From positions 67-64,066 of the forward strand of contig JABDGR010000001.1 in the NCBI GenBank assembly GCA_013285985.1: a DNA stretch of 64,000 nucleotides. Direction: 5' to 3'. Both the position numbers and the translations under genes were made by a program. The stretch comes from Verrucomicrobiota bacterium (lineage in GTDB: Bacteria; Verrucomicrobiota; Verrucomicrobiia; Opitutales; JABDGR01). Every line of letters begins with the position of its first letter. Position 1 is the first letter of the stretch. Below are positions 27,619 to 58,924 of the stretch, one piece after another. The notes under the pieces were generated by a model. That model saw only the letters and a list, made by a program, of their open reading frames with translations. It searched no databases and was not told the origin of the DNA.

Positions 27619-27813
27619 AAAGGGGGAAGTTCCCGCCCTACCCTCAAACAACGCCCCACCGATCGCGGGACGAGTCCCAAGACCTCGCCCTGAATCGGGC
27701 GCAGCAAGACTGCGCCTCTACGCAAAATTCCAACCGACTTTAAAACATGAGCTAGGCCCGCCGGGGACGTCGGGCCCTACCAAGAACGGCATAGCGCAAG
27801 CGCTGGCCCTACC

Positions 27814-32365: not shown

Positions 32366-33016
32366 CTAATTCCCTGCGTCATCCGGTTTCATATACCACT
32401 TGCCGTTGATTTTGACGAAGACCAAGGAGTTATGAATATCGGAAGTGGTGAACGCGCCGTTTTCCAAGTCGGACATTGATGGGGTAGTGTAAATATAAGT
32501 GGCTTCGTCACCAGCAGCGTTAAAAATAGGCGCCTGATTCAAGAGGGCTTCGAAAGCCTGCGCCCTCGCTTCATATCTATGCTGCGTGGCTTCTTTTCCT
32601 TGCCGGCCCATGGCATCCACGCGAGCTTGAATCTGATCCTGCTGCGCTTGCAGTGCTTGCACCCGGTCTTCATGGATTTTGTCGGGCGGGGTGTAGGCTC
32701 GCAATATCGCCACCAAGTTATTGGTCCGGTATAAATTCGCCATATCGGTGAGGGCGGCATTCAACTCAATTCTGGACCCGGCGTTGGGGTCTTTGGGCGG
32801 TGTGGCGGCGACAGGCGCAGCGGCTGAATTCGGCGCCGGCGGCGCAACTTGCTTGGGTGCTTCAATTTTACTCAGCGAAGGCACAGTAGTTTTGCTCGGC
32901 GCAGGCGCAGAGGCAGTTTTTTCCGGGACAGTTGCGGCGGGGCGCAGAAACCACCAAATGCCCATACCGGCGAGGACAACGATGAGAACAGCCAAGGTGA
33001 AGTTTTTAGGCCTCAT
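32366..33016 (-). CDS. Stand-alone membrane-anchored NGxWY-domain protein (paralog B)
   Basis: The ATG at 33016 gives MRPKNFTLAVLIVVLAGMGIWWFLRP, then an AP-rich linker, YTPPDKI, APIFNAAGDEATYIY and FVKINGKWYMK. The track start at 33052 adds 12 codons. Confidence 0.85.
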   Translation of the reverse strand: MRPKNFTLAVLIVVLAGMGIWWFLRPAATVPEKTASAPAPSKTTVPSLSKIEAPKQVAPPAPNSAAAPVAATPPKDPNAGSRIELNAALTDMANLYRTNNLVAILRAYTPPDKIHEDRVQALQAQQDQIQARVDAMGRQGKEATQHRYEARAQAFEALLNQAPIFNAAGDEATYIYTTPSMSDLENGAFTTSDIHNSLVFVKINGKWYMKPDDAGN

Positions 33017-33103
33017 GGCGTTTTTCTTCGCATTTTGTATCCAAGAAGGCAAACACTTCTGTTAGCCGGCAGCAAATCAGCTTGAATTTTGGCTTTGTTC
33101 TTT

Positions 33104-36359: not shown

Positions 36360-36523
36360 GGAAATAGGGAGATGGAGGAACCACGTTAACAGATTTCCGG
36401 CGCAGGGGAAGCACAACCGGCATGCCAATATTGACGCATTTTGAAATGACCTAAACAAGCGCCTAAAGAGCGGATTGGCCAGAGCCTAAAACTCTCCAGA
36501 AAACGACGAGCAGAGAATAAGAA

Positions 36524-37711
36524 CTAATTTGCCAAGAAACCTACCGTTTTTGCTTTTGGCATGGTTTTTATTTTAGCTGATAACTCTGTTTGGGTGAAGA
36601 GTGAAGGCCATTCGAGATTGATTGAAATTATATATGTCTCGCCGTCTTTTCGGTGTCGTATTGCCTGTAGATGTATGAGTTGATTCAAGTCCCTAATCAA
36701 AATCTTGTAAGGATTTTTTATTGTGTATGCCCATTTTGTTTTTTCGGTAATGGCCTCTAAGGTTAATTCTCCTTCCTGCAAGAGAAGTTTCAATACCTCA
36801 AATTGGCGCCCTGTTACTACACGTTTTCTGGGAGAGGTTAAGCGCCCAACTAACTCCGTCATGGTTTGCCTAAATAACGCCTTCGAAATATGCTCTTTTA
36901 TTTCTGAAAATAGGCGTTTGCATTGCTGTTCTATACCTTTTAGGCCAAGTAAAATGAATGGCGTCAAATCGTACTCTTGAGCACGTACGTCTGCCAACGC
37001 CTTTAGGTAAGCATTTTTTTCGTCATAATAATAATTGGACATTGCGATAAAGAGCGGTGTTTCGCGCAACCCAACTCTTTGAAGCATCAAGGCTTCTAAT
37101 GCTCGAGCTGTGCGACCATTGCCATCGAGAAAGGGATGCATGGCCGCAAAATGGTAATGTAACGCGAGTGCCTGTATAAGTGGGTCGTGGTCCTGGAACT
37201 CAGTCCGCACCGCCTCGCAAAGAGACTGGAAGGATTGGCAGACCATGTCGCCACCTGGTGCGCCACGATGCCTTGGATGTCCAAAAATGACATTGTCATC
37301 CGGGCCACGCAGTTTTCCGGGTGGGCAGTGATCATCATCTGCACCCGTGACGATGAGTCTGTGAATTTCGCAAATAAGCTCTTCATTGACTGGCCTATCG
37401 GCCGGCTGTTGGGCAATCCACCGATACGCATTTGCGGCAGCAGCGGCTTGTTTTTGAGAACGCGTTTCTAATTGTTCCACAGATTCGTGCATGGCTGCAT
37501 CTAACTCTTTGTCTGTAAATTCAGCTCCTTCAATTTTTGAAGTGCCAGCCACCTCGCGTTTAAGTTGAATACGCCGCATTTCATCAGCCCATTCACGCTG
37601 ATAGGGCATACTCGTCAGCGAAATAACCATTGCCTTTGCCGTGGACAATGGGCCTAGAACTTGGCCTTTATCGTATTTCAGCCAGCTTTGGGGGCGAGTG
37701 TAACGGATCAT
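36524..37711 (-). CDS. Fic family protein (class II, N-terminal inhibitory motif; C-terminal wHTH-like region)
   Basis: Fic active-site motif HPFLDGNGRTAR and an upstream TSKIEG that matches the (S/T)xxxE(G/N) auto-inhibition motif. The track start at 37723 is TTG; the first ATG is at 37711. Lies in the low-GC islet. Confidence 0.88.
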   Translation of the reverse strand: MIRYTRPQSWLKYDKGQVLGPLSTAKAMVISLTSMPYQREWADEMRRIQLKREVAGTSKIEGAEFTDKELDAAMHESVEQLETRSQKQAAAAANAYRWIAQQPADRPVNEELICEIHRLIVTGADDDHCPPGKLRGPDDNVIFGHPRHRGAPGGDMVCQSFQSLCEAVRTEFQDHDPLIQALALHYHFAAMHPFLDGNGRTARALEALMLQRVGLRETPLFIAMSNYYYDEKNAYLKALADVRAQEYDLTPFILLGLKGIEQQCKRLFSEIKEHISKALFRQTMTELVGRLTSPRKRVVTGRQFEVLKLLLQEGELTLEAITEKTKWAYTIKNPYKILIRDLNQLIHLQAIRHRKDGETYIISINLEWPSLFTQTELSAKIKTMPKAKTVGFLAN

Positions 37712-37761
37712 TACCAAATTCAATTCATTTCCAGAATTATAGCAAGCATTAAATTCATAAA

Positions 37762-38400
37762 ATGTTGGATGATAATGAAATAAAAGTTTTAAGTAAATTT
37801 TTACTCGACTTTAAAATCAATTTCGTTTCCAGTCCATTTCCTCGATTTATGAGCACTATTTATCTCAATTCGTTTTTCCCGATTAATCAGATTACGGCGA
37901 ACAAGTTGATGGCTGTTTGCGCCCAGCTTATCGCCAGCGAAAAGCCCGAACGACTTTATTTCCTCTTCGCTTCACCCGGCGGCGAAGTTCCTGCAGGCAT
38001 AGTAATTTATCATTATCTAAGGGCACTCCCCGTCAAGGTGACGATGCACAACATCGGCTCGATAGATTCAATCGCCAATGTAATTTTTCATGCCGCTGAT
38101 GAACGCAAGGCCGTACCGCAATCCACATTTTTATTTCACGGTGTCAGCTTGGGACTGGAAAAGGTAAGTTTAAACCGAAATCAACTTCAAGAGCTTAGCA
38201 GCCAATTAAGCGCCGATGAAATGAAAATCGCCACGATTCTAGCTGCCCGTTGCAACCTCACGCATGGGGATATCGAGTCCATGTTTGTCCAAGGCGTAAC
38301 CAAAGACGCCGTCTTTGCGAAGGACAAAGGCATCATTCAGGAGATTTCTCAGCCTGTCATCCCCCCAGACGCAAAGTTCATTAGCCTGAACTTTACCTAA
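37762..38400 (+). CDS. ClpP-like (clan SK, Clp/crotonase fold) serine protease family protein
   Basis: Aligns by eye to ClpP. LFASPGGEVPAGIVIY matches INSPGGxxTAGxxIY, NIGSIDSIANVIF matches GQAASMGAFLL (catalytic Ser position), and STFLFHGV matches SRVMIHQP (His position). An alternative start is M31 at 37852. Confidence 0.7.
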   Translation: MLDDNEIKVLSKFLLDFKINFVSSPFPRFMSTIYLNSFFPINQITANKLMAVCAQLIASEKPERLYFLFASPGGEVPAGIVIYHYLRALPVKVTMHNIGSIDSIANVIFHAADERKAVPQSTFLFHGVSLGLEKVSLNRNQLQELSSQLSADEMKIATILAARCNLTHGDIESMFVQGVTKDAVFAKDKGIIQEISQPVIPPDAKFISLNFT

Positions 38401-38614
38401 GGCGGAGGGGTCTCCGGCCCAAAAAATGACCGGAAAGGCCACGTTTTTGAAATAAGGCGTTTCCATAGCGGTTAAAAATACCCTCCGATGAGGTGTTATA
38501 CAAGGGCTTTTATCACTTAGATTTGCTCCGTGCAATGGCTCCGTTGGCTGCGTTGGATAGATTTGATGCGTTTGATAGGTTGGGTTCTGCTTAGCAGAGT
38601 AGTCTCCCTTCTTG

Positions 38615-39880
38615 TTACGGCTCGTGTTTGACGGTGGATAGATCCAGCTTGCCGAGTTTGGGAGCGAGGAGGGCCGTGGCCGCGGCGACGACGAGGGTCA
38701 TGCAGCCGCCAAAAACCACCGAGGGCACGGTGCCCATGAGCTTGGCCATGACGCCGGATTCGAATTCACCAATTTCGTTGGAGGAGCCGACGAAGATGGA
38801 GCTGACCGCGGCGACGCGGCCCTTCATGTGGTCGGGCGTGACAATCTGGAACATCGTCCAGCGGACAAAGACGCTGACGGCGTCGAAACCGCCGCTGAGG
38901 AAGAGACAGAACATAGAGAGCCAGAAATTGGTGCTGATGCCGAAGAGAATCATGGAGACGCCGAAACCGACGACGTTCCATAACAAGGCCGGGCCGGCGC
39001 GGCGCGTAATGGGGTAATAGGACAAATAGACGCCGACAACGGCAGAGCCGGCGGCGGGCGCGGCGCGTAGAAAACCGAGGCCGATGGCGCCAGTGTGTAG
39101 AATCTGGTCTGAATAAATCGGCAGCAAAGCGACCGCGCCACCGAAGAGCACAGCAAATAAATCGAGCGTCATCGCGCCGAGGATAACCTGGCTACGGAAG
39201 ACGAAGCGGAGGCCTTCATGAATGCTGGCGACGACGGATTGCTCGGTGCGTTGCGGGGTAACCGGCTGAACCGGGATGGGGAGAAGGCTGACCCAGCCGA
39301 TTAAGAGTGCGAGGACGGAAAGACCGTACGTCACCGCGGCGCCGAAGTAGGCGAAGCAAATCCCGCCCGCGGCCGGGCCGCCGATGCACGCGGCCTGCCA
39401 GACGTTCGCGTTCCAGACGGAGGCGTTGCCATAGAGTTCAGGCGGGACGATTTGGCCGAGCAACCCGAAATGCGCCGGGCTGAGAAAACCACGGCAAAGC
39501 CCGGTAAAAAAGATGACGGCGTAGATAATCCAGAGGTGCGTCAGAAGAAAATCGTGAAACATCGGCAGGGAAGCCGCGGCGAGGGCGGCGGTGGCGAGCA
39601 GAAGCAGACCGTTCGACATTAATAGAATAGTCCGACGGCTCATCACGTCGGCGACATGGCCGGCGAAGAGAGAAACGCCCAAAGCCGGCACGGCCTCGGC
39701 CAGGCCGATGAGGCCCATCTTGAGGGGGTCGTGGGTCAACTGGTAAATCTGCCAGCCGACGGCGACGCTTTGAATCTGGATGGCGCTGGAGCCAAAGAGG
39801 CGGTAGAGCCAGAAGGCGCGATACGCGGGCAGGCGGAAGGCGGCGTAGGCGTCGGTCGGCGGAGTAATGGCGTCCGGCAT
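38615..39880 (-). CDS. MFS transporter
   Basis: About 12 hydrophobic segments and the MFS motif-A-like GHVADVMSRRTILL. ATG at 39880 (MPDAITPP...); the track start at 39916 is 12 codons longer. Confidence 0.85.
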   Translation of the reverse strand: MPDAITPPTDAYAAFRLPAYRAFWLYRLFGSSAIQIQSVAVGWQIYQLTHDPLKMGLIGLAEAVPALGVSLFAGHVADVMSRRTILLMSNGLLLLATAALAAASLPMFHDFLLTHLWIIYAVIFFTGLCRGFLSPAHFGLLGQIVPPELYGNASVWNANVWQAACIGGPAAGGICFAYFGAAVTYGLSVLALLIGWVSLLPIPVQPVTPQRTEQSVVASIHEGLRFVFRSQVILGAMTLDLFAVLFGGAVALLPIYSDQILHTGAIGLGFLRAAPAAGSAVVGVYLSYYPITRRAGPALLWNVVGFGVSMILFGISTNFWLSMFCLFLSGGFDAVSVFVRWTMFQIVTPDHMKGRVAAVSSIFVGSSNEIGEFESGVMAKLMGTVPSVVFGGCMTLVVAAATALLAPKLGKLDLSTVKHEP

Positions 39881-39982
39881 TTTCCCCAAAATCCCGCGTG
39901 CGAGCGCGCGAGTCAATGGCGGAACGCGGGATGGCGCGGGGCCTCAGGTGTTTCCCCAAGAGAATAAGACTGGCGGAACGGA

Positions 39983-41698
39983 ATGCTTTCGCCAGTGTTT
40001 GTTTTGACCATGGGCCTTTGCCGCCGAGCCAGCAGCATCCTTTGCGCCGCCGCAATCCTTGTGGCCGGCGCCCCGCCCGCCCGTGCCGCCACAGTGGTGG
40101 CCGCGGCGAATGATTATATACCCAGCGCCGAGCGGGTGGTGGTGGTGGCCAACTCGCGCGAGCCGGAGTCGGAAAAAATCGCGCGTTACTACATGCAGAA
40201 GCGCCAGATACCCGAAAAAAACCTGATCCTGCTCGACGCACCCACCGCCGCGGACATCACCTGGACGGAATTTGTGGAGCAGATTTTCAACCCGTTGCGC
40301 GCGCGGCTGACGAAAGACGGCTGGCTGACGGCCTACGTCAGCGGCCAAAAAGACGGTGAGGGACGGTTGCGCTACGTCTTCTTCGGAAACAAAATTGATT
40401 TTCTCGTCGTATGCTACGGCGTGCCCATCCGGATCCAAAACGACCCGGCGCGCCTCGTGGAAACGGCGCTGACGCGCGAACATAAAGAATTGAAAAGCAA
40501 CCAAGCCGCGGTGGATAGCGAACTCGCCCTGCTCGCCGCGCCGGAGACGCCAACGACGGGCCTGGTCGCCAACCCGCTATTCCAAATCGCCAAGCCGGAC
40601 AATTTTATCCGCGCGGAAGTCGTCAAGGTCGCGCGGCTGGACGGCCCGGACCCGGCGGCGGTGCGCGGCCTGGTGGACAGCGCGCTGGCTGGCGAAGCGA
40701 ACGGCTTGCAAGGCCGCGCGTACATCGACATGGGCGGGCCGCACCAGCAAGGCGAAGACTGGCTGAAGTCCGCCAGCGCGGCGCTGCGCAAGCTCGGCTT
40801 CGACGTGAGCGAGGACCACAACCGGGAGCTTTTTGGCTGGCAGGATCGTTTTGACGCCCCCGCTTTTTATTTCGGCTGGTATTCCGACCATCTCTCCGGC
40901 CCGATTTCCGATCCGAAGTTTCGCTTTCCGCCCGGCGCCATCGCGGTCCACATCCACAGTTTTTCCGCGAGCGTGATTCGCAGCCCCGACCAGCAATGGG
41001 TCGGCCCGCTGGTGGAACGCGGGGTCGCGGCCACGCTGGGCAACGTTTACGAACCGTACCTTGCCTTCACGCACCATCTGGATTTGTTCATGGAGGCGCT
41101 CGCGGCGGGCAAGACGACGGGCGAAGCCGCCTATTACTCGCTGCCGGCGCTGAGCTGGCAGGAAGTCTTCATCGGCGACCCACTCTATCGGCCTTTTGCC
41201 TTCGGCCTGCCCGAGCAACTGGCTCGCGCCAAGAGCGCACCGAACGCCTATTCGACGTATACGGTCATCCGGCAAATGAACCTGTTGCAGGGAGCGGGAA
41301 ATACTGCCGATGCGCTGGCGTTTGGGCAGGAGGCCTTCGACCATCAACCGGATTTGGCGCTGGCCTTTGCGCTCGCGCAACTCGACCACGCGCTCGGCCA
41401 CGACCTCGACGCGTTCAAGCACCTGGCCTGGGCGGCGACCATCGGCCCGGTGACGCGCGGGGATTTGGGGTTGTTCGCCGAAGCCGCGCGCTGGGCCGCG
41501 GCCAATGGCGGCCGGCCGCTGGCGCTCGACTTGCTCACCAAGGCCCTCGCGGCGGAGGCGAGCCCGGAGTTTCTCAAAACCATTTTGCCCGAAGCCATCG
41601 GCCTCGCTGGCGACGCCGGCAACGCGGACCTGCATGATCGCTGGCAAAAGCAACTCGATGGACTCACCCCCCACCCCGACCATGCCGCCGCCCAATAA
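39983..41698 (+). CDS. Secreted TIGR03790-like hypothetical protein with helical (TPR-like) C-terminal third
   Basis: Signal-like N-terminus (..AAILVAGAPPARAA), then VVVVANSREPESEKIARYYMQKRQIPEKNLILLD, IDFLVVCYGVPIRI and AAVDSELALL. I recognise this pattern from memory as the TIGR03790 family; it was not searched. Alternative start at 40010. Confidence 0.6.
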   Translation: MLSPVFVLTMGLCRRASSILCAAAILVAGAPPARAATVVAAANDYIPSAERVVVVANSREPESEKIARYYMQKRQIPEKNLILLDAPTAADITWTEFVEQIFNPLRARLTKDGWLTAYVSGQKDGEGRLRYVFFGNKIDFLVVCYGVPIRIQNDPARLVETALTREHKELKSNQAAVDSELALLAAPETPTTGLVANPLFQIAKPDNFIRAEVVKVARLDGPDPAAVRGLVDSALAGEANGLQGRAYIDMGGPHQQGEDWLKSASAALRKLGFDVSEDHNRELFGWQDRFDAPAFYFGWYSDHLSGPISDPKFRFPPGAIAVHIHSFSASVIRSPDQQWVGPLVERGVAATLGNVYEPYLAFTHHLDLFMEALAAGKTTGEAAYYSLPALSWQEVFIGDPLYRPFAFGLPEQLARAKSAPNAYSTYTVIRQMNLLQGAGNTADALAFGQEAFDHQPDLALAFALAQLDHALGHDLDAFKHLAWAATIGPVTRGDLGLFAEAARWAAANGGRPLALDLLTKALAAEASPEFLKTILPEAIGLAGDAGNADLHDRWQKQLDGLTPHPDHAAAQ

Positions 41699-41969
41699 GA
41701 AAAAAGAGGTTGATTACGCGGCGCTGTCGTCGCCGTTCATGCGCATCCCGCGCCTGCCGGTCGTCGTTGCACGCGACCTGATCGACCTTGGGCTGCGCGA
41801 TGTTTTCGAGCTGCAGGGCCGCGCGCCGGAAGTGCTGTTGGAGGAAATGCGCCGCCGAAAACCCACCACGCCCGACAGCCACCTGCCGTTTATTCGCCTC
41901 GCGGTTTATTTTGCGGAAAACCCGGATCCCGACCGCGAGAAATTATATCCGGATGCGTGGAGGGATTAA
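41682..41969 (+). CDS. Small helix-hairpin-helix protein (Cdd1 / 'pathogenicity locus'-like)
   Basis: The ATG at 41682 overlaps the upstream gene by 17 nt. 95 aa containing FMRIPRLPVVVARDLIDLGLRDVFELQGRAPEVLLEEM. The track ORF 41505..41969 is over-extended into the upstream gene. Confidence 0.55.
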   Translation: MPPPNKKKEVDYAALSSPFMRIPRLPVVVARDLIDLGLRDVFELQGRAPEVLLEEMRRRKPTTPDSHLPFIRLAVYFAENPDPDREKLYPDAWRD

Positions 41970-42121
41970 CTTGAGGTTCCAATTCGCGCCATGCGAGATA
42001 TGCCTACGGCAAGCGATGGCAAAATGTGGCTGGCGGGAAGCTGATTTTATTGATATTTATAAACTTGAGGTTTGGATCAGGGCCGTCGTCTTGATTTTTT
42101 TGAATTCATAGAGTTGACGCC

Positions 42122-43219
42122 ATGAAACGCTTGAAAGTTATCCAGTGGACCGGGCTGGCTTTTCTTGGCGGAATGGCGGTGGGTTACTATGGATTCTCGC
42201 GTTCGGTGAAGGAACCGGCCAAGGCCCATGCGACCACAGTCGTGATTCCGGCGACAGCCAAGACGGTATCGTCCACTGGCGAGGTGCCAAACCCGTGGGA
42301 CAGGACAAGTTCAGATGCGGAGCTACTGGGGCTGGCGCGCGTGATGCTCGCGCGCTCTTCGCAAGAAGCACTGGCCTGGGCGCAGTCTTGCGCAGACCCG
42401 GAGTTACGCCGACGGCTTGGCTTGGCCGTCGCGCAGGCTTGGGGGGAAAAGGATCCAACGGAGGCGGTGTCTTGGGCACTGGCCCAGAATGAAGAAAGCG
42501 TGCCCGCAGACCTCAAAGCGGTTTTGGCCGGCGCGATCCGCCAGCCGGTGGCGGTGGAAATCGGCCGTAACTTGTTGGCGCAAAACTCAGCCTATGCCGG
42601 CATGTATGGAACGGCCTTGGTGGCGGCGCTGGACACGGATGAACAGTTTTTGACGGCAGCACGGTTCGCCCAAGAAGCACCGGCGGATTACCGCGAAGAT
42701 TGGGCGGCGGCGGCGGCCCAGGCCTGGGCCAAGAGCCAACCACGCGAAGCGCTGACGGCCCTGGATACGCTCGTTGACGAGCCGTTGCGCGACCCGGTTT
42801 TTCGCGCCGTGGTGCAAGGCTGGCCCGCCACGCAACCCGCGGATTTGGCCACCTATGCGCTTTCCCTGCCGCCGGGTGAGCAACGCGCCTATGCGCTGGA
42901 CCAAGTCATGTACAAATGGGCGCGGCAGGATCCGGCCGGGCTGGCCGCGTGGCTGGCGAATGTTCCTTCAGGGCCAAATTACGACACGAGCACATTTTTT
43001 ATGGTCACGGAGGCCACGCCCGCCAGACTCGACCCCAGCGTGGCCCTGAACTGGGTGGAGAGCATTGGCGACCACGGCATCCGGCTCAATTCGTTCGCGC
43101 AAGTACTGGGGCAATGGGGGCAAACCGATCCGGTGGCGGCGCGGAACTACGTGCAACAGGCGCGCGGGCTGGAAACAAACGAACGGGCACAGTTGCTGCA
43201 AAGCATCCAGGCCCGGTAA
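42122..43219 (+). CDS. Membrane-anchored helical-repeat protein (W-x3-(D/Q)P-x2-A repeats), function unknown
   Basis: N-terminal TM (WTGLAFLGGMAVGYYGF) and five repeats: AQAWGEKDPTEAVSWAL, AQAWAKSQPREALTAL, VQGWPATQPADLATYAL, YKWARQDPAGLAAWLA, GQWGQTDPVAARNYV. Confidence 0.7.
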   Translation: MKRLKVIQWTGLAFLGGMAVGYYGFSRSVKEPAKAHATTVVIPATAKTVSSTGEVPNPWDRTSSDAELLGLARVMLARSSQEALAWAQSCADPELRRRLGLAVAQAWGEKDPTEAVSWALAQNEESVPADLKAVLAGAIRQPVAVEIGRNLLAQNSAYAGMYGTALVAALDTDEQFLTAARFAQEAPADYREDWAAAAAQAWAKSQPREALTALDTLVDEPLRDPVFRAVVQGWPATQPADLATYALSLPPGEQRAYALDQVMYKWARQDPAGLAAWLANVPSGPNYDTSTFFMVTEATPARLDPSVALNWVESIGDHGIRLNSFAQVLGQWGQTDPVAARNYVQQARGLETNERAQLLQSIQAR

Positions 43220-43240
43220 GCGGCGGCATCGGGCATGGTA

Positions 43241-43280
43241 ACAAAAACAAACCCGACCCCGGGATGGCCGGGATCGGGTT
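43241..43280 (-). terminator. Rho-independent terminator candidate for the pectate lyase gene (hairpin shared by the convergent gene pair)
   Basis: The hairpin spans 43250-43280: AACCCGACCCCGG-gatg-GCCGGGATCGGGTT, with one mismatch. On the minus strand it is followed by TTTGTTTTTGT. Confidence 0.55.
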
Positions 43281-43321
43281 GTGTGGAAGAATAATATTTC
43301 CCGGAGCCAGCCAGCCATTCA

Positions 43322-44521
43322 CTAAGGAATGGTGCCGTAACCGCCGTTGCTCAGGCCGGTTTGAGTCTGGCTGGTGTAGAGCCCGGTGCCGGGGCCATCG
43401 GTGCCGCTGCCGGTGCCGGTGGTGCCATGGCCGAGCTTCTGGACCTGGCTGATGACGAGCAGGTCGAGCTGGTCATGGGGCAGGTCGCCCGCGTTGGCCA
43501 GGACATAGGTGTAAGCCTGGGCCGCGGTCATCGTCGTGAGGGAGTTGGTGGTGGAAGCCCAGGGAGAGGTGAGAACGGTTACGCCAGTCGGATTGACGGT
43601 GGAACCATTCAGCGTGCCGTCATTGTTGCTATCGAGCAGGTTGCCGTTGGAATACACGGATTGACCGATATTCATCTGGAAGAAACAATCGCTCGGGGTG
43701 GTGGTGGCGGGTCCGGTGATGAAGTAATTGTTCACGATGTCGTGGGAGAAGATCCCGCCGGTATTGGCGACCGTGTAGCCGAGTTCGTAATTATAGATGA
43801 CGTTCTGAATGTATTGGTCGTTGTCCTTGGCGAGCGGCTGGCGGTTGTGGCAACTCACCCAGAGGTTATTGATGAACGTGAAGTTGCTGCCTTCGACGTG
43901 GGCGCCAAATTGCTGATTGATGGGATCGGCGATGATGCAGTTTTGCACGGTGACGTTCGAGCAAGTCACGGCGTCAAAGCTGTCCCACTGGCCGAACTCC
44001 AGCGAGCAATGATCAAAGATCATGTTGCTGCCGCCACCGATGTTGACGGCGCTTTCACCACTGTCACCGAGAGTGCCCTGACGAAAGCGCATGAAGCGGC
44101 AGATGATGTTGCTGTGTTTGGAAAACGACACTTCGGCGCCCTCGATACCGATGCCCGTTCCCGAGGACGTGTTGCCGAGGATGGTGAGGTTGCTGCTGCA
44201 GCTTACGGCCGAGGCGAGCTTGATGTAACCGTGGACGCTGAACTGGACGATGCGGTTGCCGGCGCTGACGGCATCACGGAAGGAGCCCGTGCCGCTGTCG
44301 TTCAGGTTGGTAACGGTATAAACGGTGCCGCCGGTGCCACCCGTGGCGTTGGCCCCAAAGCCCATGGCGCCGGGGAAAGCCAGCGCATGCAAGGGACAAC
44401 TGCCGAAGGCCGCGAAGACAAACAGGCCGCAGAAACTGAGCGCAACCAAGCGAAACGCCGAAGCGAAACGCGACGAGAAACCTGCGATAAACGCAGAGAG
44501 CGAACCAAGGATGGTGTTCAT
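43322..44521 (-). CDS. Pectate lyase (PL1-like), secreted
   Basis: Signal-like N-terminus, then AFPGAMGFGANATGGTGGTVYTVTNLNDSGTGSFRDAV, the typical PL1 pectate-lyase N-terminal box. Parallel beta-helix-like N/G/S-rich body with an HNRQP segment. Confidence 0.8.
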   Translation of the reverse strand: MNTILGSLSAFIAGFSSRFASAFRLVALSFCGLFVFAAFGSCPLHALAFPGAMGFGANATGGTGGTVYTVTNLNDSGTGSFRDAVSAGNRIVQFSVHGYIKLASAVSCSSNLTILGNTSSGTGIGIEGAEVSFSKHSNIICRFMRFRQGTLGDSGESAVNIGGGSNMIFDHCSLEFGQWDSFDAVTCSNVTVQNCIIADPINQQFGAHVEGSNFTFINNLWVSCHNRQPLAKDNDQYIQNVIYNYELGYTVANTGGIFSHDIVNNYFITGPATTTPSDCFFQMNIGQSVYSNGNLLDSNNDGTLNGSTVNPTGVTVLTSPWASTTNSLTTMTAAQAYTYVLANAGDLPHDQLDLLVISQVQKLGHGTTGTGSGTDGPGTGLYTSQTQTGLSNGGYGTIP

Positions 44522-44883
44522 AGGGATTGGGTTTAAGCAGGGAAAGCCGGCAGAAAAAACCGGCTGCCCAACGGCCCGTGTCTTAAGTGACGGCTGGATG
44601 AACTTGCAATAGGAAAAACTATGTATGGAAAATACTAAGTAGTTTTACCCGGTTGGAAAATTTCTCCCGGGAAAATGAGGGTTCTTTGCCGACGGGCCGT
44701 TTGCGTTTTCGCCGATCTTTGGGCTTAACTCCCCTTAAAAAAATATCGGCGCAACTAAAAGCATGGCCAAAGTGTTGTCGGCAAATGAAGCCTTTACTCT
44801 GGCCGGCTCATCCTCATGTAACAGATAACTGGGCTTAATCCCTTAGCATCCGCCGAGTACACCGCAGACTAAAAAACGGCAAC

Positions 44884-44973
44884 GACCTGCCTTTTATTCG
44901 CCTTGCGGTTTATTTTGCCGAAAACCCCGACCCTGACCGCGAGAAACTATATCCCGACGCCTGGCGGGATTAG
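44884..44973 (+). pseudogene. Orphan 3' fragment (last 29 codons + stop) of a second HhH/Cdd1-like gene
   Basis: Translates to DLPFIRLAVYFAENPDPDREKLYPDAWRD*. The last 28 residues are identical to the C-terminus of 41682..41969, yet 11 codons differ synonymously. There is an in-frame TAA at 44836-44838 and no ATG, GTG or TTG codon between that stop and the fragment. Confidence 0.8.
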
Positions 44974-46028
44974 CGCGGCTGCTGCTGGCTGAGGCAGTGG
45001 AGTGCGCCGCCTTCGAGCAAAACATCCGAGCAATCGAGCGGCACGATTTCGTGGCCGGGGAAACATTCGTGCAGCGCGTGCGCGGCGAACGCGTCGGTCG
45101 GGCGGTTGTAGGAAGGCATCAAGATCGCGCCGTTGGTGACGACGTAATTGGCGTAGCTCGCGGGCAGCTCGTGCCCGTCCACCTCGACCGGGGGAAAAGG
45201 CACGGGCAGCTCGGCAATTTCAAAGCGGCCGCCCGAGGGCGTGCGGAAATTTTCCTCGAGGGCGAAACGGTTGTGGCGGAGGATTTTGGCGGCTTCGTCC
45301 TGCGCGCCGACGGGCGGCATGACGGTGATGATGCCGTCGTCGCGGAAAAACCGCGTGAGGTTGTCGATGTGGCCGTCGGTGTCGTCGTTGGGCAGGCCTT
45401 CCTGCAGCCAGAGGATTTCCGTCACGCCGAGGCCGCCGGAGAGCAGGCGCGTGTAATCGTCCTTGGTGAGTTCCGGATTGCGGTTCGGGTTGAGGAGGAC
45501 GACCTCGGTGGTCAAGAGCTGGCCGGGGCCGTTGATTTCAATCGCGCCGCCTTCGAGAATGATATCCCCCGAGAAACAGCGCATATTCAGGCTCTCCGCG
45601 ATGCTCGAAGGAATGGCGTCGTCGAGGTCCCAGGGCGAAAACTTTCCGCCCCAGGCGTTGAAGCGCCAACTGGTGACGGCGACTTCGCCAGTCTGGTCGT
45701 TCTTGATGAAGAGCGGGCCGTGGTCGCGGCACCAGACGTCGTTGACCGGATGGTCGAATAATTCTATCACAGAAAGGTCGGTGCGGGCGTCGTTGAGCAG
45801 GCGGCGGATTTCGGCGTGCTGCGCGGCGGAGGCATTGATGCGCACGGGGACGAAGCGGCTGAGCGTGGCGGCATAGTTGGCAAAAAACGGCGGAATGCGC
45901 TCAAAGCGCCCCGGCCACAAATCCGGATTACTCGGCCAAGAAAGCCACATCGCAGCCTGCGGCGCCCATTCCGGCGGCAGGCGAAAGCCGAGCGCGGCGG
46001 GGGTTGGTGCGGGAAAGTCTTTGGTCAC
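44970..46028 (-). CDS. aguA: Agmatine deiminase family protein (PAD_porph type)
   Basis: GFRLPPEWAPQ...WLSWP N-terminal box and C-terminal EGGALHCLSQQQP (catalytic Cys context). GTG start at 46028. Confidence 0.8.
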   Translation of the reverse strand: MTKDFPAPTPAALGFRLPPEWAPQAAMWLSWPSNPDLWPGRFERIPPFFANYAATLSRFVPVRINASAAQHAEIRRLLNDARTDLSVIELFDHPVNDVWCRDHGPLFIKNDQTGEVAVTSWRFNAWGGKFSPWDLDDAIPSSIAESLNMRCFSGDIILEGGAIEINGPGQLLTTEVVLLNPNRNPELTKDDYTRLLSGGLGVTEILWLQEGLPNDDTDGHIDNLTRFFRDDGIITVMPPVGAQDEAAKILRHNRFALEENFRTPSGGRFEIAELPVPFPPVEVDGHELPASYANYVVTNGAILMPSYNRPTDAFAAHALHECFPGHEIVPLDCSDVLLEGGALHCLSQQQPR

Positions 46029-46139
46029 AGGCTGGCCAGTTTGGCAGATTTTCCGGAAATGTCCACTGTTGGGTGTTTCAGATAATAGTGAGTCCGTTTG
46101 AAATTAAGCAGGATTATGGGTATTGGCAAACCCCCCAAG

Positions 46140-46766
46140 CTAGTCGCCGAAACGTTTCACATACCATTTGCCGTCGATTTTGATAAAAGTTAGAGGAATT
46201 TGCGTTTCACCGACAGCAATTCCCTCGTTGCTGAGTTTTGGCGCTGGGAGCATATAAGTCGCTTCATCGCCACTAGTGTTAAAAGTCGGGGTCTGGGTTT
46301 CGAGCCTCTCGTAAGCCTGCGCCCCAGTTTCTCGGGACTGAATGGACGGTGTGACAATTTTGTCGGCGGTACGGTTTTGAGAAGTTTGCAGTTCTTGCAA
46401 ATGCACTGGGTCAAATTGTGCCGGCTCTGTGTAAATTCGATATAATTCCGCCATATCGCCCGCCCGGTATAAACGCGCGATGTCTGGAATCACGGTTTTT
46501 AAATCGGTCTGGGGGTCGGCGGGATCGGGTGGAGTCTCCGTGGGTTTGGATGGTGCGTTGGCGATTTCAGACTTGGACTGAACGGACGGTGCCAAAAATT
46601 TAGCTATTTGAGGCGGCGCGATTGTTTTGGGCGCTTTGGCCTTGGCGGGGGCTGTCGCATCGGCCGTTTTTTCCGGGGTGGACGTGGTTTGCTGCATGAA
46701 CCACCAAACGCCGACAATCACGATGGCGATGAGGAAAACAATCCGGATGAAGTTTTTAGGCTTCAT
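46140..46766 (-). CDS. Stand-alone membrane-anchored NGxWY-domain protein (paralog C)
   Basis: The ATG at 46766 gives MKPKNFIRIVFLIAIVIVGVWWFMQQ, then a linker, ADPQTDLKTVIPDIARL, QTPTFNTSGDEATYML and FIKIDGKWYVK. The track start at 46952 translates the upstream repeat. Confidence 0.85.
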   Translation of the reverse strand: MKPKNFIRIVFLIAIVIVGVWWFMQQTTSTPEKTADATAPAKAKAPKTIAPPQIAKFLAPSVQSKSEIANAPSKPTETPPDPADPQTDLKTVIPDIARLYRAGDMAELYRIYTEPAQFDPVHLQELQTSQNRTADKIVTPSIQSRETGAQAYERLETQTPTFNTSGDEATYMLPAPKLSNEGIAVGETQIPLTFIKIDGKWYVKRFGD

Positions 46767-46850
46767 GCGAGTTTTATTCACATTTTTTATCCGATGACGC
46801 AAACCATTCTGCGTGGGGACGGTGATGCATTTGGAAGATGGGTTTATTGT

Positions 46851-47068
46851 TTCGCCCTGCATGGGCGAAGGAGTCCAGCCCAGGGTTGAACGCAGAGAAA
46901 CCCTGGGGGTTCGTGAATTAAACATTTTGCGCTCTGAAGGGCGCAGGAACATGGCTCTACTCTCCTCCGCCCCTTCAGGGCGGGAGATAATATGTTCCTG
47001 TCACCCAGGGTTTCCCCCGCTTACGCGGGGTCAACCCTGGGCTTTGTTCCTGCAGCCTTTCAGGCTGC
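46851..47068. repeat. ~215-bp composite of GC-rich hairpins, copy 2 (homologous to 33104-33317)
   Basis: Same hairpin order as copy 1. Stems are conserved while loops and interiors differ (e.g. GCGCTCTGAAGGGCGC versus GCGCCCTGTAGGGGCGC). Confidence 0.8.
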
Positions 47069-47144
47069 TGAATTAACTTCAATTTAACCTGTTTCCGTCC
47101 ACCCCGCCTTGTGTTTTGGTTTAAAACTCCTACGCTGGGTGGCG

Positions 47145-48332
47145 ATGCAATTTTCGACGCGGGTGCCGGCGGCTTTGGAGGACAATGCCCTGGCGCGGGC
47201 GGTGGCGGCGCGGCGCGCAGCCAAGAAAACCATTTATGACCTGACGCTGACCAACCCCACGCAGGCGGGCCTGGATTATCCGACAGCAGAAATCGCCGCG
47301 GCGCTGGCGGAGGGCGCGGCGGCGCCCTACTCTCCCGAGCCGCTCGGGTTGCTCTCCGCCCGCAAAGCCGTCGCCGCTTATTATCCCGGCTGCGGGCTCG
47401 ATGCCGTGGATTGGACGTGTTTACACCTGACCGCGAGCACGAGCGAGGCGTACAGCCTGCTCTTCAAGCTCCTCGGCGAGCCGGGCGTGGAAATCCTGGC
47501 GCCGCGACCGTCGTACCCGCTCATCGAGCACCTGGCGGCGCTCGACGGCTGGAGCGCCCGACCCTATCCGCTAGTTCCAGATCACACGGGAGTCTGGCAC
47601 CTGGACCAGGCCGCCCTCGTGGCCGCAATCACCCCTGCGACGCGCGCCATCGCCGTCATCCACCCGCACAATCCCACGGGCTGGATAGCCAATGGCGCAG
47701 ACACGCATTTTCTTTTGGACACCTGCGCCCGGCACGGCCTGCCACTGATCGCGGATGAAGTTTTCCTGGATTACCCTGCAGTCGGGAACAAAACTTGCGC
47801 GGAGTCTTTCGCCTCCCATAAAAGTTCGGCGCTCACCTTCACGCTGGGCGGCCTCTCCAAAAGCTGCGGGCTGCCGCAGCTCAAACTGGCGTGGATCCAC
47901 ACCGGCGGGCCGGCGGAACTTGTCGCCGAGGCGCAAGCGCGGCTCGACTTCATCGCCGACGCCTATTTGTCCGCCAATACGCCGGTGCAGGCGGCGCTGC
48001 CGAAGCTTTTTGAATGCGGCAAAAAAATCCGCGGGCAAATCCAAAGACGCCTCGAGGAAAATTACGCAGTGCTGGCGGGGCTCACCTGGCCCAAGGGCCT
48101 GGCGGTGATGCCGCGCGAGGCCGGCTGGAGCGCGCTGCTGCGCCGGCCGGCGGCGCCCGATGAGGAGAAACTCGCGCTGAAACTGCTGGAGCGGGCGGGA
48201 GTGCTCGCCCACCCGGGATATTTTTTTGATTTTCCCGAAAGCGGCTGGCACGTGATCAGCCTGTTACCAGAGCCCAAAGAATTTCGCGTCGGCGTAGAGG
48301 GATTGCGCGAGTGGCTGCCGAAACTGGTTTAG
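47145..48332 (+). CDS. PLP-dependent aminotransferase (class I/II)
   Basis: HPHNPTGW (the NPTG box) and LGGLSKSCGLPQLKLAW (PLP-lysine context). ATG at 47145 (MQFSTRVPAALE); the track start at 47109 is longer. Confidence 0.8.
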   Translation: MQFSTRVPAALEDNALARAVAARRAAKKTIYDLTLTNPTQAGLDYPTAEIAAALAEGAAAPYSPEPLGLLSARKAVAAYYPGCGLDAVDWTCLHLTASTSEAYSLLFKLLGEPGVEILAPRPSYPLIEHLAALDGWSARPYPLVPDHTGVWHLDQAALVAAITPATRAIAVIHPHNPTGWIANGADTHFLLDTCARHGLPLIADEVFLDYPAVGNKTCAESFASHKSSALTFTLGGLSKSCGLPQLKLAWIHTGGPAELVAEAQARLDFIADAYLSANTPVQAALPKLFECGKKIRGQIQRRLEENYAVLAGLTWPKGLAVMPREAGWSALLRRPAAPDEEKLALKLLERAGVLAHPGYFFDFPESGWHVISLLPEPKEFRVGVEGLREWLPKLV

Positions 48333-48344
48333 GCGCCTTCGACG

Positions 48345-52656
<4,312 letters not shown>

Positions 52657-56130: not shown

Positions 56131-57420
56131 ATGACCTCCGATAGCGACTTGTTGCGCCAATACGCCGACCACGGCGACGAGGCCGCGTTTGCGGAGGTCG
56201 TGCGGCGGCAGGCCGACCTGGTCTATTCCGTCGCTCTGCGCGTGACGGCCAATTCCGCGCTGGCCGAGGAGGTGACGCAAACGGTCTTCACCCTGCTCGC
56301 GCGGCGGGCCAAAGCACTTTGCCATTACGACACGCTGGTGGGCTGGCTGCACACCACGGCGCGCAACACCGCCATCAATGCCGTACGGGGCGAGTCCCGC
56401 CGCCGCGCGCGCGAACAGGAGGCCGTCATCATGCAAGACTCACCCATCATGCCCGAAGCCAATTGGGCGGAAATCGGCCCGCTCCTCGACGAAGCCGTGG
56501 GCACGCTCTCCGAGCAGGACAGCAAAGCCGTCCTACTGCGTTTTTTTAAAAACCAGAGCCACCAGGAAGTCGGCGCGGCGCTGGGCCTGAGCGAAGACAC
56601 CGCGCGCAAACGCGTGGAACGGGCGTTGGAGAAACTGCGGAGCCATTTTGCCTCACGCGGCGTCACCGCATCATCTGCGCTGCTCGCCGCCAGCCTGACC
56701 GCGAACTCCGTGCAAGCTGCGCCGGTGGGATTGGCGGAAAAAATTGCCCCCATCTCGCTGGCCGGAATCGGCGGCGCGGGCGCGGGCAGCGCATTTTTAC
56801 TCGCACTAATCATGAGCACAAAAACCAAAACCATCCTCGCCATCGTTGTTGTCCTGGCCATCGCCGCCACTCTCGCCGTCAAATTGGGCGGTTCGGGCGC
56901 AGCACCCGCAACCGCCAGTTCAACGCCATCCACTCCCACTCCAGTCGCCGCCAGCCTGCCCAAGGCATCGACATCTGCGCCGCAGGTGGCCACGCCGACG
57001 ATGGCACCCCTGCCTGCGCATGGCGCAGTTTCCGCCGACACCGGACTCACGGCAACGGCAAGCACAGTCCCGGCGAACGCGGATTTGAAAACCGATGTGC
57101 CGACGCTTATCCACCTGCTGGAGATTGATGATTTTAATGACCTGATAGACTACATCATACCGCCGGAGGAATTGCAGCATGACCTGCAGGCGCAAACCCG
57201 GGAGGTTTTTGCGAATAAACTTCGTGAGGAATTGGGCGCCCATGGCGGTGCCGCGATGCTGCTTGATGCCCTGCACTCAATTGATGGCCAGGAGCCGGTG
57301 CTAAATGACACTGGAGATGTCGCCACATTCAGGCTGGGACCGGCCACCATTGCCACCGCGGCCGGCCACGATGAAATCAAGTTCAAGAAAATGAACGGGT
57401 TGTGGTACGGCCCACAATGA
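56131..57420 (+). CDS. ECF-type sigma-70 factor fused via TM helix to extracytoplasmic NGxWY domain (G1)
   Basis: Region 2 (DLVYSVALRV..GWLHTTARNTAINAVR) and region 4 (LSEQDSKAVLLRFF..EVGAALGLSEDTARKRVERALEKLR). Conserved segment RGVTASSALLAASLTANSVQAAPVGLAEKIAPISLAG, TM MSTKTKTILAIVVVLAIAATLAV, an AP/T linker, IIPPEEL, QEPVLNDTGDVATFRL and FKKMNGLWYGPQ. Confidence 0.85.
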   Translation: MTSDSDLLRQYADHGDEAAFAEVVRRQADLVYSVALRVTANSALAEEVTQTVFTLLARRAKALCHYDTLVGWLHTTARNTAINAVRGESRRRAREQEAVIMQDSPIMPEANWAEIGPLLDEAVGTLSEQDSKAVLLRFFKNQSHQEVGAALGLSEDTARKRVERALEKLRSHFASRGVTASSALLAASLTANSVQAAPVGLAEKIAPISLAGIGGAGAGSAFLLALIMSTKTKTILAIVVVLAIAATLAVKLGGSGAAPATASSTPSTPTPVAASLPKASTSAPQVATPTMAPLPAHGAVSADTGLTATASTVPANADLKTDVPTLIHLLEIDDFNDLIDYIIPPEELQHDLQAQTREVFANKLREELGAHGGAAMLLDALHSIDGQEPVLNDTGDVATFRLGPATIATAAGHDEIKFKKMNGLWYGPQ

Positions 57421-57439
57421 ACTGGGCGACGGCGCTTTT

Positions 57440-57472
57440 TTGTCAGACTTTCGGGCGGGCGGGTGCTATAAG
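57440..57472 (+). promoter_or_regulatory. Conserved upstream box of G2 (TTGTCA-N21-TATAAG)
   Basis: Aligned with the other four boxes; its end lies 13 nt from the ATG. Confidence 0.4.
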
Positions 57473-57485
57473 GTAAAGCACCCTT

Positions 57486-58838
57486 ATGACCCCCGATGGT
57501 GAATTATTGCGGCAGTATGCCGTGGAAGGCTCCGAGGCCGCCTTTGCGGAACTCGTGCGCCGCCACGTGGACCTGGTTTATTCCGTCGCGCTGCGGCAGG
57601 CGGCGGGAGACTCCGCGCTGGCGCAGGATGCTACGCAGTTGGTGTTTATCGACCTCGCCCGCAAGGCCCGCGTGCTAAGCGGGCGGGCCACGCTCTCCGG
57701 CTGGCTGCACACCAGCGCGCGCTTTGCCGCCAGCAAAGCCATCCGCGGCGAACAACGCCGGCGGGCCCGCGAACAGGAGTCCCTCACCATGAATGAAAAC
57801 CCCGCCGCCGAAATAAATTGGGAACAGTTGCGCCCGTTGCTCGACGAGAGCGTGGGCCAGCTCAAGGAAGCCGACCGCGACGCCATCGTGTTGCGATTTT
57901 TTCAGGGCAAAAACCACCAAGAAATCGGCGCCATCCTCGGCCTCAGCGAAAATTCGGCGAATAAACGCATTGAGCGCGCGCTGGAAAAGCTGCGCGAATA
58001 TTTTGCTTCGCGCGGGGTGAAAGCCTCTTCCGCTTTGCTGGCGGCCGCCATCAGCGCGAATTCCGTGCAAGCCGCGCCGGCGGGATTGGCGGAAAAAATT
58101 ACCCCGGTTTCGTTGGCCGGGATAGGTGGCGCGAGTCTCGGCAGCGGGCTTTTCCTGGCACTTCTTATGAACACCAAAATCAAAGTAATTCTCGGCGCGG
58201 CCATTGTTTTGGCCTTGGCCCTCATGATCAAATTGAGCTGGCACCTGCCCGCCAACACGGCGATTTCGGACCCACCGCCCGTGGCGGCGGCGTCATCGGC
58301 AAAAGTGGAGGCCCCGGCCGCGCAGGCGGTAAAAATTGCCGCTGCCCCGACTGCCGACGGTCAGCCGGCGACCGCTCGACCGGCAGACGCGCCGGGTGCA
58401 ACCCCGGCAGAAATTGCCGCAACGGAGGACACACCCCCGCCGCCGAACGTGAATCCACAGGCCGACGTGCAGACGCTCCTGCCCGCCCTGATCAAGGTTC
58501 TGCAGGCTGGAGACTATGTCGGCCTCGTCAATTATATCGTGTCACCCGATGAATTGAAACAGATGATCGCCAGCGGCCAAATCGCCTCCAAGGAAGAGTT
58601 GGCGCAACAACTCCACGATGCCGCCGATCAATCGGGCGGAGCCGCGTTTGCCGTGCAGGGCCTGCAGGTTGTCATGGCTTCACTCGCGAATCCATCCATC
58701 CCCGTTCCCGGGGCCACCCCTTACACGGTGAATGCCACGGAAGACCGTATCGCGTATTCATTCCAAACGCAGCTGGGTCCAAGGGACATCGTTTTTTCCA
58801 AAAAGAATGGCCTTTGGTATGCTTTTCAAAAGAATTGA
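57486..58838 (+). CDS. ECF-type sigma-70 factor fused via TM helix to extracytoplasmic NGxWY domain (G2)
   Basis: Same architecture: GWLHTSARFAASKAIR, LGLSENSANKRIERALEKLR, RGVKASSALLAAAISANSVQAAPAGLAEKITPVSLAG, MNTKIKVILGAAIVLALALMI, linker, IVSPDEL and FSKKNGLWYAFQKN. Confidence 0.85.
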   Translation: MTPDGELLRQYAVEGSEAAFAELVRRHVDLVYSVALRQAAGDSALAQDATQLVFIDLARKARVLSGRATLSGWLHTSARFAASKAIRGEQRRRAREQESLTMNENPAAEINWEQLRPLLDESVGQLKEADRDAIVLRFFQGKNHQEIGAILGLSENSANKRIERALEKLREYFASRGVKASSALLAAAISANSVQAAPAGLAEKITPVSLAGIGGASLGSGLFLALLMNTKIKVILGAAIVLALALMIKLSWHLPANTAISDPPPVAAASSAKVEAPAAQAVKIAAAPTADGQPATARPADAPGATPAEIAATEDTPPPPNVNPQADVQTLLPALIKVLQAGDYVGLVNYIVSPDELKQMIASGQIASKEELAQQLHDAADQSGGAAFAVQGLQVVMASLANPSIPVPGATPYTVNATEDRIAYSFQTQLGPRDIVFSKKNGLWYAFQKN

Positions 58839-58872
58839 AGCACAGAATTACTGGACGGGTAACGTAAGATTT

Positions 58873-58904
58873 TTGTCAGGTTCTTTGGGTAGGCGGTGTA
58901 TAGT
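58873..58904 (+). promoter_or_regulatory. Conserved upstream box of G3 (TTGTCA-N20-TATAGT)
   Basis: Aligned with the other four boxes; its end lies 20 nt from the ATG. Confidence 0.4.
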
Positions 58905-58924
58905 TTATAAAACCGCCCTGCCGG

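Follow-up and report, generated by a model that had tools for sequence, protein, structure and literature searches.

How did the end of one gene come to stand twice, almost 3 kb apart, in a genome whose relatives carry it once? The question is raised by a 64,000-nucleotide stretch of a Verrucomicrobiota bacterium (GenBank assembly GCA_013285985.1, contig JABDGR010000001.1, positions 67 to 64,066), referred to below as the window. The last 28 codons of a short gene encoding a helix-hairpin-helix (HhH) protein recur there as an orphan fragment abutting the 3′ end of a convergent gene of the agmatine-deiminase family (aguA), and the two copies, called A and B, bracket an insert that carries a two-gene module. 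We report that the insert is specific to this lineage and that the present arrangement was made by recombination between DNA of two close lineages. The features needed to follow the argument are given here in window coordinates.

39983-41698, plus strand: TIGR03790-family gene (NCBIfam TIGR03790, E 3e-104), the left flank, overlapping the start of the HhH gene by 17 nt
41682-41969, plus strand: intact HhH gene of the Cdd1/PF11731 type, 95 aa (Pfam PF11731 Cdd1, E 1.1e-5), ending in copy A
41883-41969, plus strand: copy A, the last 28 codons (41883-41966) and the stop codon TAA (41967-41969) of the working HhH gene
41970-42018: left linker, 49 nt, separating the HhH stop from the conserved cassette; without counterpart at the other cassette loci
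42019-44848: conserved two-gene cassette, ~2.83 kb, with both genes, both upstream regions and a shared terminator
44849-44886: right linker, 38 nt, from the outermost conserved cassette motif to copy B, ending at the join 44886/44887
44887-44973, plus strand: copy B, 28 orphan codons (44887-44970) and TAG (44971-44973), without a start, at the ancestral aguA junction
44925-44969, minus strand: predicted stem-loop of the aguA transcript, just 3′ of the stop, encoded by the antisense of copy B
44970-46028, minus strand: aguA-like gene, agmatine-deiminase family (Pfam PAD_porph, E 1e-104)

A duplicated gene end around inserted DNA

Copies A and B encode the same 28-residue peptide, LPFIRLAVYFAENPDPDREKLYPDAWRD, and differ at 12 of 87 nucleotides (86% identity). 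As a preliminary description of this DNA had stated and direct comparison confirms, these mismatches amount to 11 synonymous codon changes, nine of them at third positions and the other two TTA/CTA and AGG/CGG, and one difference between the stops (TAA/TAG). They are spread over positions 6-87, and the longest identical run is 14 nt. Random single changes in the gene-end sequence are silent in 22-29% of cases, the probability of 12 silent changes out of 12 is about 1e-8 to 3e-7, and a chance origin of the silent-only difference is excluded. Outside the repeated segment the two copies have nothing in common: identity is 22.5% over the 120 nt upstream and 27% over the 100 nt downstream. Sensitive alignments of 44400-44886 with HhH codons 1-67, made at the DNA level and as protein in three frames, were no better than shuffles and revealed no HhH homology upstream of B. 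A 7/10 match just upstream of B was considered as hidden homology and rejected as not significant. No in-frame ATG, GTG or TTG is available to B, and its frame is closed by a TAA at 44836-44838, with 48 nt between that codon and B; the earlier picture of an orphan without a start below unrelated text is thus accurate. At the other end, the stop of B overlaps the aguA stop by 4 nt (TTA at 44970-44972, plus strand). In composition, neither copy is atypical of the genome. Taken together they are direct repeats of 87 bp with a start-to-start spacing of 3004 nt; no terminal inverted repeat (TIR), transposase or short identical target duplication was found at the insert, the repeat being 87 bp long and 86% identical.

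Relatives were reached by tracing the closest HhH proteins to their contigs, and the nearest of them, contigs L012/L013, came out of a 90% protein cluster. The HhH protein of L012/L013 is 95% identical to that of the window (P0169), and the coding DNA is 85-93% identical. Window and L012 share the gene order S46 peptidase, RNase II-type (RNB-domain) protein, DUF5069, MFS, TIGR03790, HhH, aguA, aminotransferase and CTP synthase (pyrG). In L012/L013 the HhH and aguA stops overlap by TTAG, and there is no insert. The same holds for two further relatives, L004/L005 (HhH 83% protein identity) and L006 (82%), which have TIGR03790, HhH and a convergent aguA with a 4-nt stop overlap, TTAA, and again no insert. 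When the three relatives were compared with the window by BLAST, the match ended exactly at 41969 and restarted at 44887. Given these empty sites and the exact break, 41970-44886 is lineage-specific inserted DNA. The HhH gene directly convergent on aguA without the intervening segment is what the preliminary description had predicted for relatives, and no relative carries both copies, as an old tandem paralogy would have them. Copy B holds the ancestral aguA junction (GGGATTAGCGCGG...), and copy A now ends the working gene. The left junction of the insert sits exactly after the HhH stop codon, and no recipient DNA is lost at the site relative to L012; instead, 87 bp are present twice. A separately assembled contig, L022 (Logan SRR8422748), reached through an aguA look-up, is identical to window 38970-47595 with 0 mismatches, both junctions included, so the structure is not specific to one assembler.

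The gene labels given earlier (HhH, helical-repeat, pectate lyase, aguA) were essentially right, as domain, PDB and model evidence indicates. The PF11731 score of the HhH gene is marginal yet above the gathering cutoff (26.0 versus 25.5 bits). It has 48 homologues, the closest at 95% and the next at 83% identity, on which the PF11731 annotation was precomputed; an exact look-up of the window HhH protein returned no record. The TIGR03790 gene is syntenic in L012, L004 and L006. The aguA-like protein scores 261.6 bits against TIGR03380, under the cutoff of 381.8. The pairing of HhH with aguA is not universal: in L002, a more distant Opitutales metagenome-assembled genome (MAG), unrelated genes follow HhH. 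The same contig carries at 815-1405, between TIGR03790 and HhH, a transposase-like open reading frame (ORF) with an HVHWLFQ motif, judged by eye.

Three alleles and the lineages behind them

To place the two copies, the L012 sequence was used as a third allele of the 87-nt gene end, and private changes were assigned by parsimony. The distances are similar (A-B 12, A-L012 10, B-L012 11). Five changes are private to A (positions 42, 69, 72, 79 and 87), six to B (18, 33, 45, 48, 61 and 75) and four to L012 (9, 30, 39 and 57), and position 6 differs in all three alleles. The six changes of B are all silent, without an indel, for which the probability under neutrality is about 1e-4 to 6e-4; a simple Poisson bound puts the orphan time of B at less than about 13% of its branch. 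Because these changes are silent in a frame that is now untranslatable, copy B, as judged from the three alleles, was part of a working gene while they arose, and its truncation is recent. The earlier claim that both copies evolved as functional genes in separate lineages is upheld by the same comparison. The proportion of silent differences (pS) is 11/19 for the pair A and B, which is no smaller than the 0.29-0.41 found for window genes against those of L012. A and B also share I71, D82 and D84, which are absent from the relatives at 82-83% identity, indicating that donor and recipient were close kin. These comparisons show A and B as products of two sister lineages, the distance between them being roughly that between the window and L012. 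Differences are found from position 6 through to position 87, so that each copy is allelic over its full length, as expected for a junction at codon 67/68. Polarising the A/B differences with the outgroups L004, L006 and L002 was abandoned: silent sites are saturated, with 18-22 differences each.

A donor tract was sought in comparison with L012 by sliding identity, pS and four-fold sites across HhH and TIGR03790, and no usable discontinuity appeared at the repeat. In statistical terms, the flanks lie no nearer to L012 and no farther from it than A, B or either reciprocal chimera. The aguA gene itself is heterogeneous: four-fold divergence from L012 is 17/49 in the 5′ 40% and 11/87 in the 3′ 60% (p 0.004), so that silent divergence is about threefold lower in the 3′ part, and amino-acid divergence is similar in both. 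Behind this heterogeneity may lie a tract of recombination or silent sites that are unusually constrained, and it may be unrelated to the insertion; read as a tract, it would mean that homologous exchange is active at the locus.

The distribution of the A-private changes bears on the history of the two copies. In relatives, the part of the gene end that contains all five overlaps the 3′ end of aguA or pairs with it. The third base of TAG is the complement of the first base of the last aguA codon (Arg, CGC), and A has TAA. The stem-loop predicted for the aguA 3′ end has a folding energy of -20.4 kcal/mol with B, -18.3 with L012, -21.5 with L004 and -18.1 with L006, against -11.1 with A; no compensatory pair was found among four sequences (0 covarying pairs). 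The position of the A-private changes and the weak A stem-loop suggest that A was uncoupled from aguA long before the truncation of B, and that B was uncoupled only recently.

The two-gene module, its other contexts and its surroundings

The DNA between the linkers comprises the following features.

42122-43219, plus strand: gene for an alpha-solenoid protein, 365 aa, in which an all-helical repeat domain comes after a hydrophobic N-terminal segment
43250-43280, minus strand: GC-rich hairpin and T-run found by terminator scan (13 pairs, 9 of them GC; tail TGTTTTTGTT)
43322-44521, minus strand: gene for a PL1-like (polysaccharide lyase family 1-like) pectate lyase, 399 aa, with a hydrophobic N-terminus
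44611-44648: near-palindrome on the upstream side of the lyase gene, window sequence GGAAAAACTATGTA..TAAGTAGTTTTACC

The 365-aa protein has no Pfam, NCBIfam or PDB sequence match. Its AlphaFold model (pLDDT, the predicted local distance difference test score, 81) contains 19 helices across residues 65-363, and the fold matches are generic HEAT/ARM/PPR-like ones, none at E <= 1e-3; on this model, it is likely a membrane-anchored alpha-solenoid protein. The family is small, and its source-named members come only from Opitutales and Verrucomicrobiales MAGs. The lyase matches the PDB pectate lyase 9buj (E 2.7e-21) and the NCBIfam model PelZ (E 2e-13, far below the curated equivalog cutoff), and has no Pfam match. 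Its 1527 homologues include many named polysaccharide lyase family 1, and identity to PL1-named proteins is 57-63%. The product of 43322-44521 thus classifies, by sequence, as a PL1-like lyase with putative pectate activity; the earlier description of the cargo as containing a secreted PL1 pectate lyase stands in its family assignment, and secretion we infer from the hydrophobic N-terminus. Many homologues at 57-63% identity come from filamentous fungi (Aspergillus, Xylariales, Trichoderma, Penicillium), and others from actinobacteria, which hints at a family spread across kingdoms. The hairpin at 43250-43280, lying between the two convergent cassette genes, is likely their shared terminator. 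The near-palindrome (GGAAAAACTACGTA..TACGTAGTTTTTCC) has perfect arms at L007 5556-5593, is weakly conserved in other cassette copies and is a candidate operator for the lyase gene. Rfam and tRNA scans of the region returned nothing relevant and no tRNA.

The cassette is not confined to this locus. Segment 42019-44848 has 78-79% DNA identity to L007, L010, L014, L015 and L017, where it lies in five other gene contexts.

L007/L008/L009 and L020/L021: between a 421-aa gene and a variable set near cysS and hemB
L010: between an aquaporin-family (MIP) gene and one of 397 aa
L014: a glycosyltransferase gene and UbiB
L015/L016: a sigma-70-type gene and MgtC
L017: a response-regulator pair

Next to close lyase homologues (87-92% protein and about 78-81% DNA identity), a counterpart of the 365-aa gene is always found in convergent orientation. 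On the left the cassette ends sharply, homology to L007, L010, L015 and L017 starting at 42017-42021; the right end is more diverged, reaching 44845 against L007 and ending in a recurring motif. At the five other contexts, no HhH fragment, flanking direct repeats, TIR, common target motif or mobility gene was found, nor was any attC-like site or nearby integrase or transposase. These comparisons show the cargo to be a self-contained, recurrent two-gene module in which each gene has its own upstream region. The preliminary description had singled out codon usage and GC content at third codon positions (GC3) as a check on the cargo, and these do not mark it as foreign: GC3 is 0.72 and 0.79 against 0.76-0.82 in neighbours, and GC and codon choice are host-like as well, so that the source was a related genome and not a distant donor.

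With the cassette known from at least six chromosomal sites in these bacteria, we also considered that the lyase and alpha-solenoid pair might be a discrete, non-autonomous mobile unit of ~2.83 kb, which may move as a small circle borrowing a piece of an adjacent gene. We think this improbable. Its ends would be at 42017-42021 on the left (AAAATGTGGCTGGCG...) and at an outer motif on the right, GGGATTAA-CCCAG, at about 44831-44848. If this were true, the window would have caught a borrowed gene end in the act, and an actively mobile module would offer a simple model for the spread of carbohydrate-active enzymes.

Two short features lie at the edges of the insert. The left linker starts with CTTGAGGTT, part of a 13/14-nt direct repeat that consists of ATTAACTTGAGGTT (41965-41978, across the HhH stop/insert junction) and ATAAACTTGAGGTT (42059-42072, in the cassette, 94 nt downstream). 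About 0.2 matches of that kind are expected in the whole window, and the repeat could be a trace of how the module first joined HhH. On the right, a hairpin followed by a T-run (GGCAGGTCGTTGCC GTTTTTTAGT; 44878-44891, minus strand) spans the join to copy B; it folds no better than shuffles (z -0.26) and may act as a terminator for aguA read-through.

The wider window has peculiarities of its own. A second insertion relative to L012 occupies 36421-38614, between the DUF5069 and MFS genes, with a low GC content of 0.46-0.53 (profiled from 38000 on). Its ORFs, as read from the translations, are one of 399 aa on the minus strand (36524-37723) in which a Fic motif, HPFLDGNGRTAR, occurs, and a ClpP-like one of 212 aa (37762-38400); no recombinase was seen among them. 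The region is flanked by two paralogous ORFs, of 228 aa (32366-33052) and 270 aa (46140-46952), with a shared C-terminal motif, ..KINGKWYMK and ..KIDGKWYVK; the second falls where conservation with L012 is lowest (49-63% identity for the greater part of that stretch). At 56131-62959 there are five tandem paralogues of about 420-450 aa, with DNA repeats 70-85% identical, which resemble a sigma-70 region 2/4 protein beside the cassette-bearing locus L008. Finally, 1-27725 holds very long minus-strand ORFs in highly repetitive DNA (direct-repeat families of up to 16 copies). One ORF of 1962 aa lies at 21837-27725, and about 1-20600 is without a listed long ORF, which fits one running off the left end; the long repetitive ORFs may encode giant surface or adhesin-type proteins.

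Origin of the arrangement and comparison with known systems

The reading that we favour, with a probability of roughly one half, is a homology-facilitated illegitimate recombination (HFIR) event in the broad sense, in which one homology-guided exchange was combined with one illegitimate join. In the lineage of copy A, the module would already have lain directly behind the HhH stop. A later event would have joined this arrangement to the ordinary HhH-aguA arrangement of the sister lineage of B, through a homology-guided exchange in HhH/TIGR03790 or in aguA and an illegitimate join at 44886/44887; in a variant, a break at HhH codon 67/68 would have been repaired on a foreign template. The left junction right after the stop codon, the A-private changes in the aguA-pairing part and the weak A stem-loop argue for this reading. 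Two directions are conceivable. Either HhH(A) and the module were imported into a B-type genome, for instance by templated repair of a break at codon 67/68, or copy B and the aguA end were imported into an A-type genome, which would have restored a proper aguA 3′ end; the lower silent divergence in the 3′ 60% of aguA lends weak support to the second. The prior adjacency of HhH and module, the type of exchange and its direction are the parts that we infer. The survival of the 87-bp scar itself is explained by selection: with HhH and aguA sharing their stop region, only products that duplicate the gene end keep both genes intact. The break in homology at 44886/44887 is sharp, and ACCTGCC, common to the sequences upstream of A and of B, is a possible 7-nt junction microhomology.

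Several observations weigh against the HFIR-type event. ACCTGCC is no more than a possible microhomology, and a genome with HhH-module adjacency and without copy B was not found. Scanning the genome collection for the TIGR03790 protein gave distant relatives only, and a metagenome scan with the fully degenerate coding pattern of the gene end returned only the L012 and L006 contigs, with ordinary HhH genes. No donor tract is detectable in either flank, and the stem-loop argument draws on five sites and has no covariation support. In transformation experiments, moreover, HFIR generally deletes recipient DNA, and duplications of a homologous segment in E. coli came from a single crossover with a circular molecule (PMC3240628). 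The window shows no deletion and an 87-bp duplication, so HFIR fits only in its break-templated or right-anchored variants. Of the preliminary proposal that a diverged, imported allele replaced most of the resident gene, recombination between two lineages therefore stands; replacement is not secured, the crossover of a circle being a serious alternative.

That alternative, a Campbell-type integration, is less probable than the HFIR-type event and still deserves real weight. A circle of 3,004 bp, on which a sister lineage's 87-bp HhH end was joined to the module and both linkers, would have integrated by one crossover in the gene end; it could have been a circularised chromosomal fragment or a small episome. 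Such an integration necessarily duplicates the shared segment and leaves HhH and aguA intact, and the topology is exact, with direct repeats equal to the shared segment and a spacing of 3004. Experiments have traced duplications of 109-950 bp of a homologous locus to single crossovers with circles and not to HFIR (PMC3240628). Over the first two thirds of the repeat, furthermore, the L012 allele follows A, and over the remainder it follows B (AABAAA/BBABB at 11 informative sites), and 9 of the 11 sites fit a reciprocal chimera with a breakpoint in the identical run 62-68; the alleles inferred on this model differ from L012 at 7/87 (resident) and 14/87 positions (circle). However, the mosaic pattern is not significant (P 0.12 in one orientation, 0.24 in either), and loss of the aguA 3′ constraint in A explains the same sites equally. 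The shared segment is just 87 bp, at 86% identity and with no identical run longer than 14 nt, and a segment so short and diverged is a poor RecA substrate in view of minimal processing segments. A donor with the module directly behind HhH is still needed, and the insert is not known as a circle. Setting A, B and the chimeras against the flanks does not separate the Campbell-type from the HFIR-type model.

A further possibility, which we regard as a long shot, is that the insert is the remnant of a site-specific integrative element that targeted the HhH 3′ end and supplied a surrogate gene end, its integrase being lost or acting in trans. The layout recalls icd-e14-icdC, where a displaced C-terminal pseudogene carries mainly silent changes (PMC13626634): an intact target gene runs into the insert, and the displaced native end lies at the far border. 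The breakpoint interval 62-68 (TATATCC) would also suit a short crossover core. Against this, the 2.9-kb insert holds two cargo genes and no integrase or recombinase, none was seen among the ORFs inspected in two other window-specific insertions or in 38000-49000, and there is no tRNA or phage-like gene. The module occurs in its five other contexts without an HhH end or direct repeats, and the metagenome scan for coding variants of the gene end gave ordinary HhH genes only.

Equally hard to credit is an insertion in situ with an 87-bp target duplication, one copy of which was later overwritten from a divergent strain or drifted; we hold it to be very unlikely. Repair of staggered breaks can duplicate short target stretches, and homologous exchange seems to be active nearby, given the silent heterogeneity of aguA (p 0.004). 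Drift is nevertheless excluded, 6/6 private changes of the untranslated copy being silent and no indel present. Overwriting is unlikely as well: with differences at positions 6-87, crossovers would be needed within the first 5 nt or past the last nt. There is, besides, no transposase, TIR or short identical duplication.

We give almost no credence to an artefact or a still-coding orphan, that is, to a contig chimera of co-occurring strains or to a copy B translated under selection. The related loci do come from one sample series that holds several related strains, and B is without nonsense or frameshift change; the separately assembled L022 is identical over 8.6 kb across both junctions, the 7 nt shared at the join are too few for a k-mer misjoin, and B has no in-frame start codon and a TAA 48 nt upstream of it. 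Insertion of a transposon or insertion sequence was rejected, as every defining feature (transposase, TIR, short identical target duplication) is lacking.

The locus is an unusually legible record of the acquisition of a trait module without mobile-element machinery, since the site can be read both empty and filled, and the cargo can be seen elsewhere. The scar diverges at silent sites only, which assigns its two halves to different lineages, and the overlap of the convergent genes means that integration has to yield a duplicate of the gene end they share. Orphan gene ends of this kind are usable as markers of inter-lineage recombination in uncultured Verrucomicrobia-type polysaccharide degraders.

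Among known systems, HFIR has been described in Acinetobacter, Streptococcus pneumoniae and Pseudomonas stutzeri, the illegitimate join usually lying at a microhomology of 3-10 bp; in a study of E. coli, events first expected to be HFIR were mostly duplications of the single-crossover kind (PMC3240628). Arrays of orphan toxin and immunity genes at type VI secretion system (T6SS) and Rhs loci have been explained likewise, with old ends left downstream of the newcomer (PMC5361080). The window resembles these cases in having an old gene end left as an orphan and, on the favoured reading, foreign DNA beside a homologous anchor with an illegitimate junction on the other side, and departs from them in that 87 bp are present twice, no anchor tract is demonstrable and the cargo is metabolic, not a toxin-immunity pair. 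With e14 and phage 21 in E. coli icd it shares an insert that supplies the 3′ end of a gene and two ends that differ mainly synonymously (PMC13626634). The e14 element, however, is a prophage of 15 kb that encodes its integrase and is excised upon SOS induction, whereas the insert in the window is 2.9 kb long, lacks a recombinase and carries a cargo found elsewhere without the gene end. Integrated suicide plasmids, the Campbell case, likewise lie between direct duplications as long as the shared fragment, and the flanking genes can stay intact; here the fragment is shorter (87 bp) and 14% diverged, and neither a plasmid backbone nor a circle is known. Mobile insertion cassettes, elements resembling miniature inverted-repeat transposable elements (MITEs) and integron cassettes are comparable as small passengers at many sites without a mobility gene of their own, but no TIR, short target duplication, attC-like site or nearby integrase or transposase was found here. 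The locus is a natural case of a known class, that of orphan gene ends arising from integration beside a homologous anchor, and is not unprecedented; what is specific to it is the overlap of the convergent target genes, the clean evidence for two lineages and the two-gene lyase module free of mobility genes.

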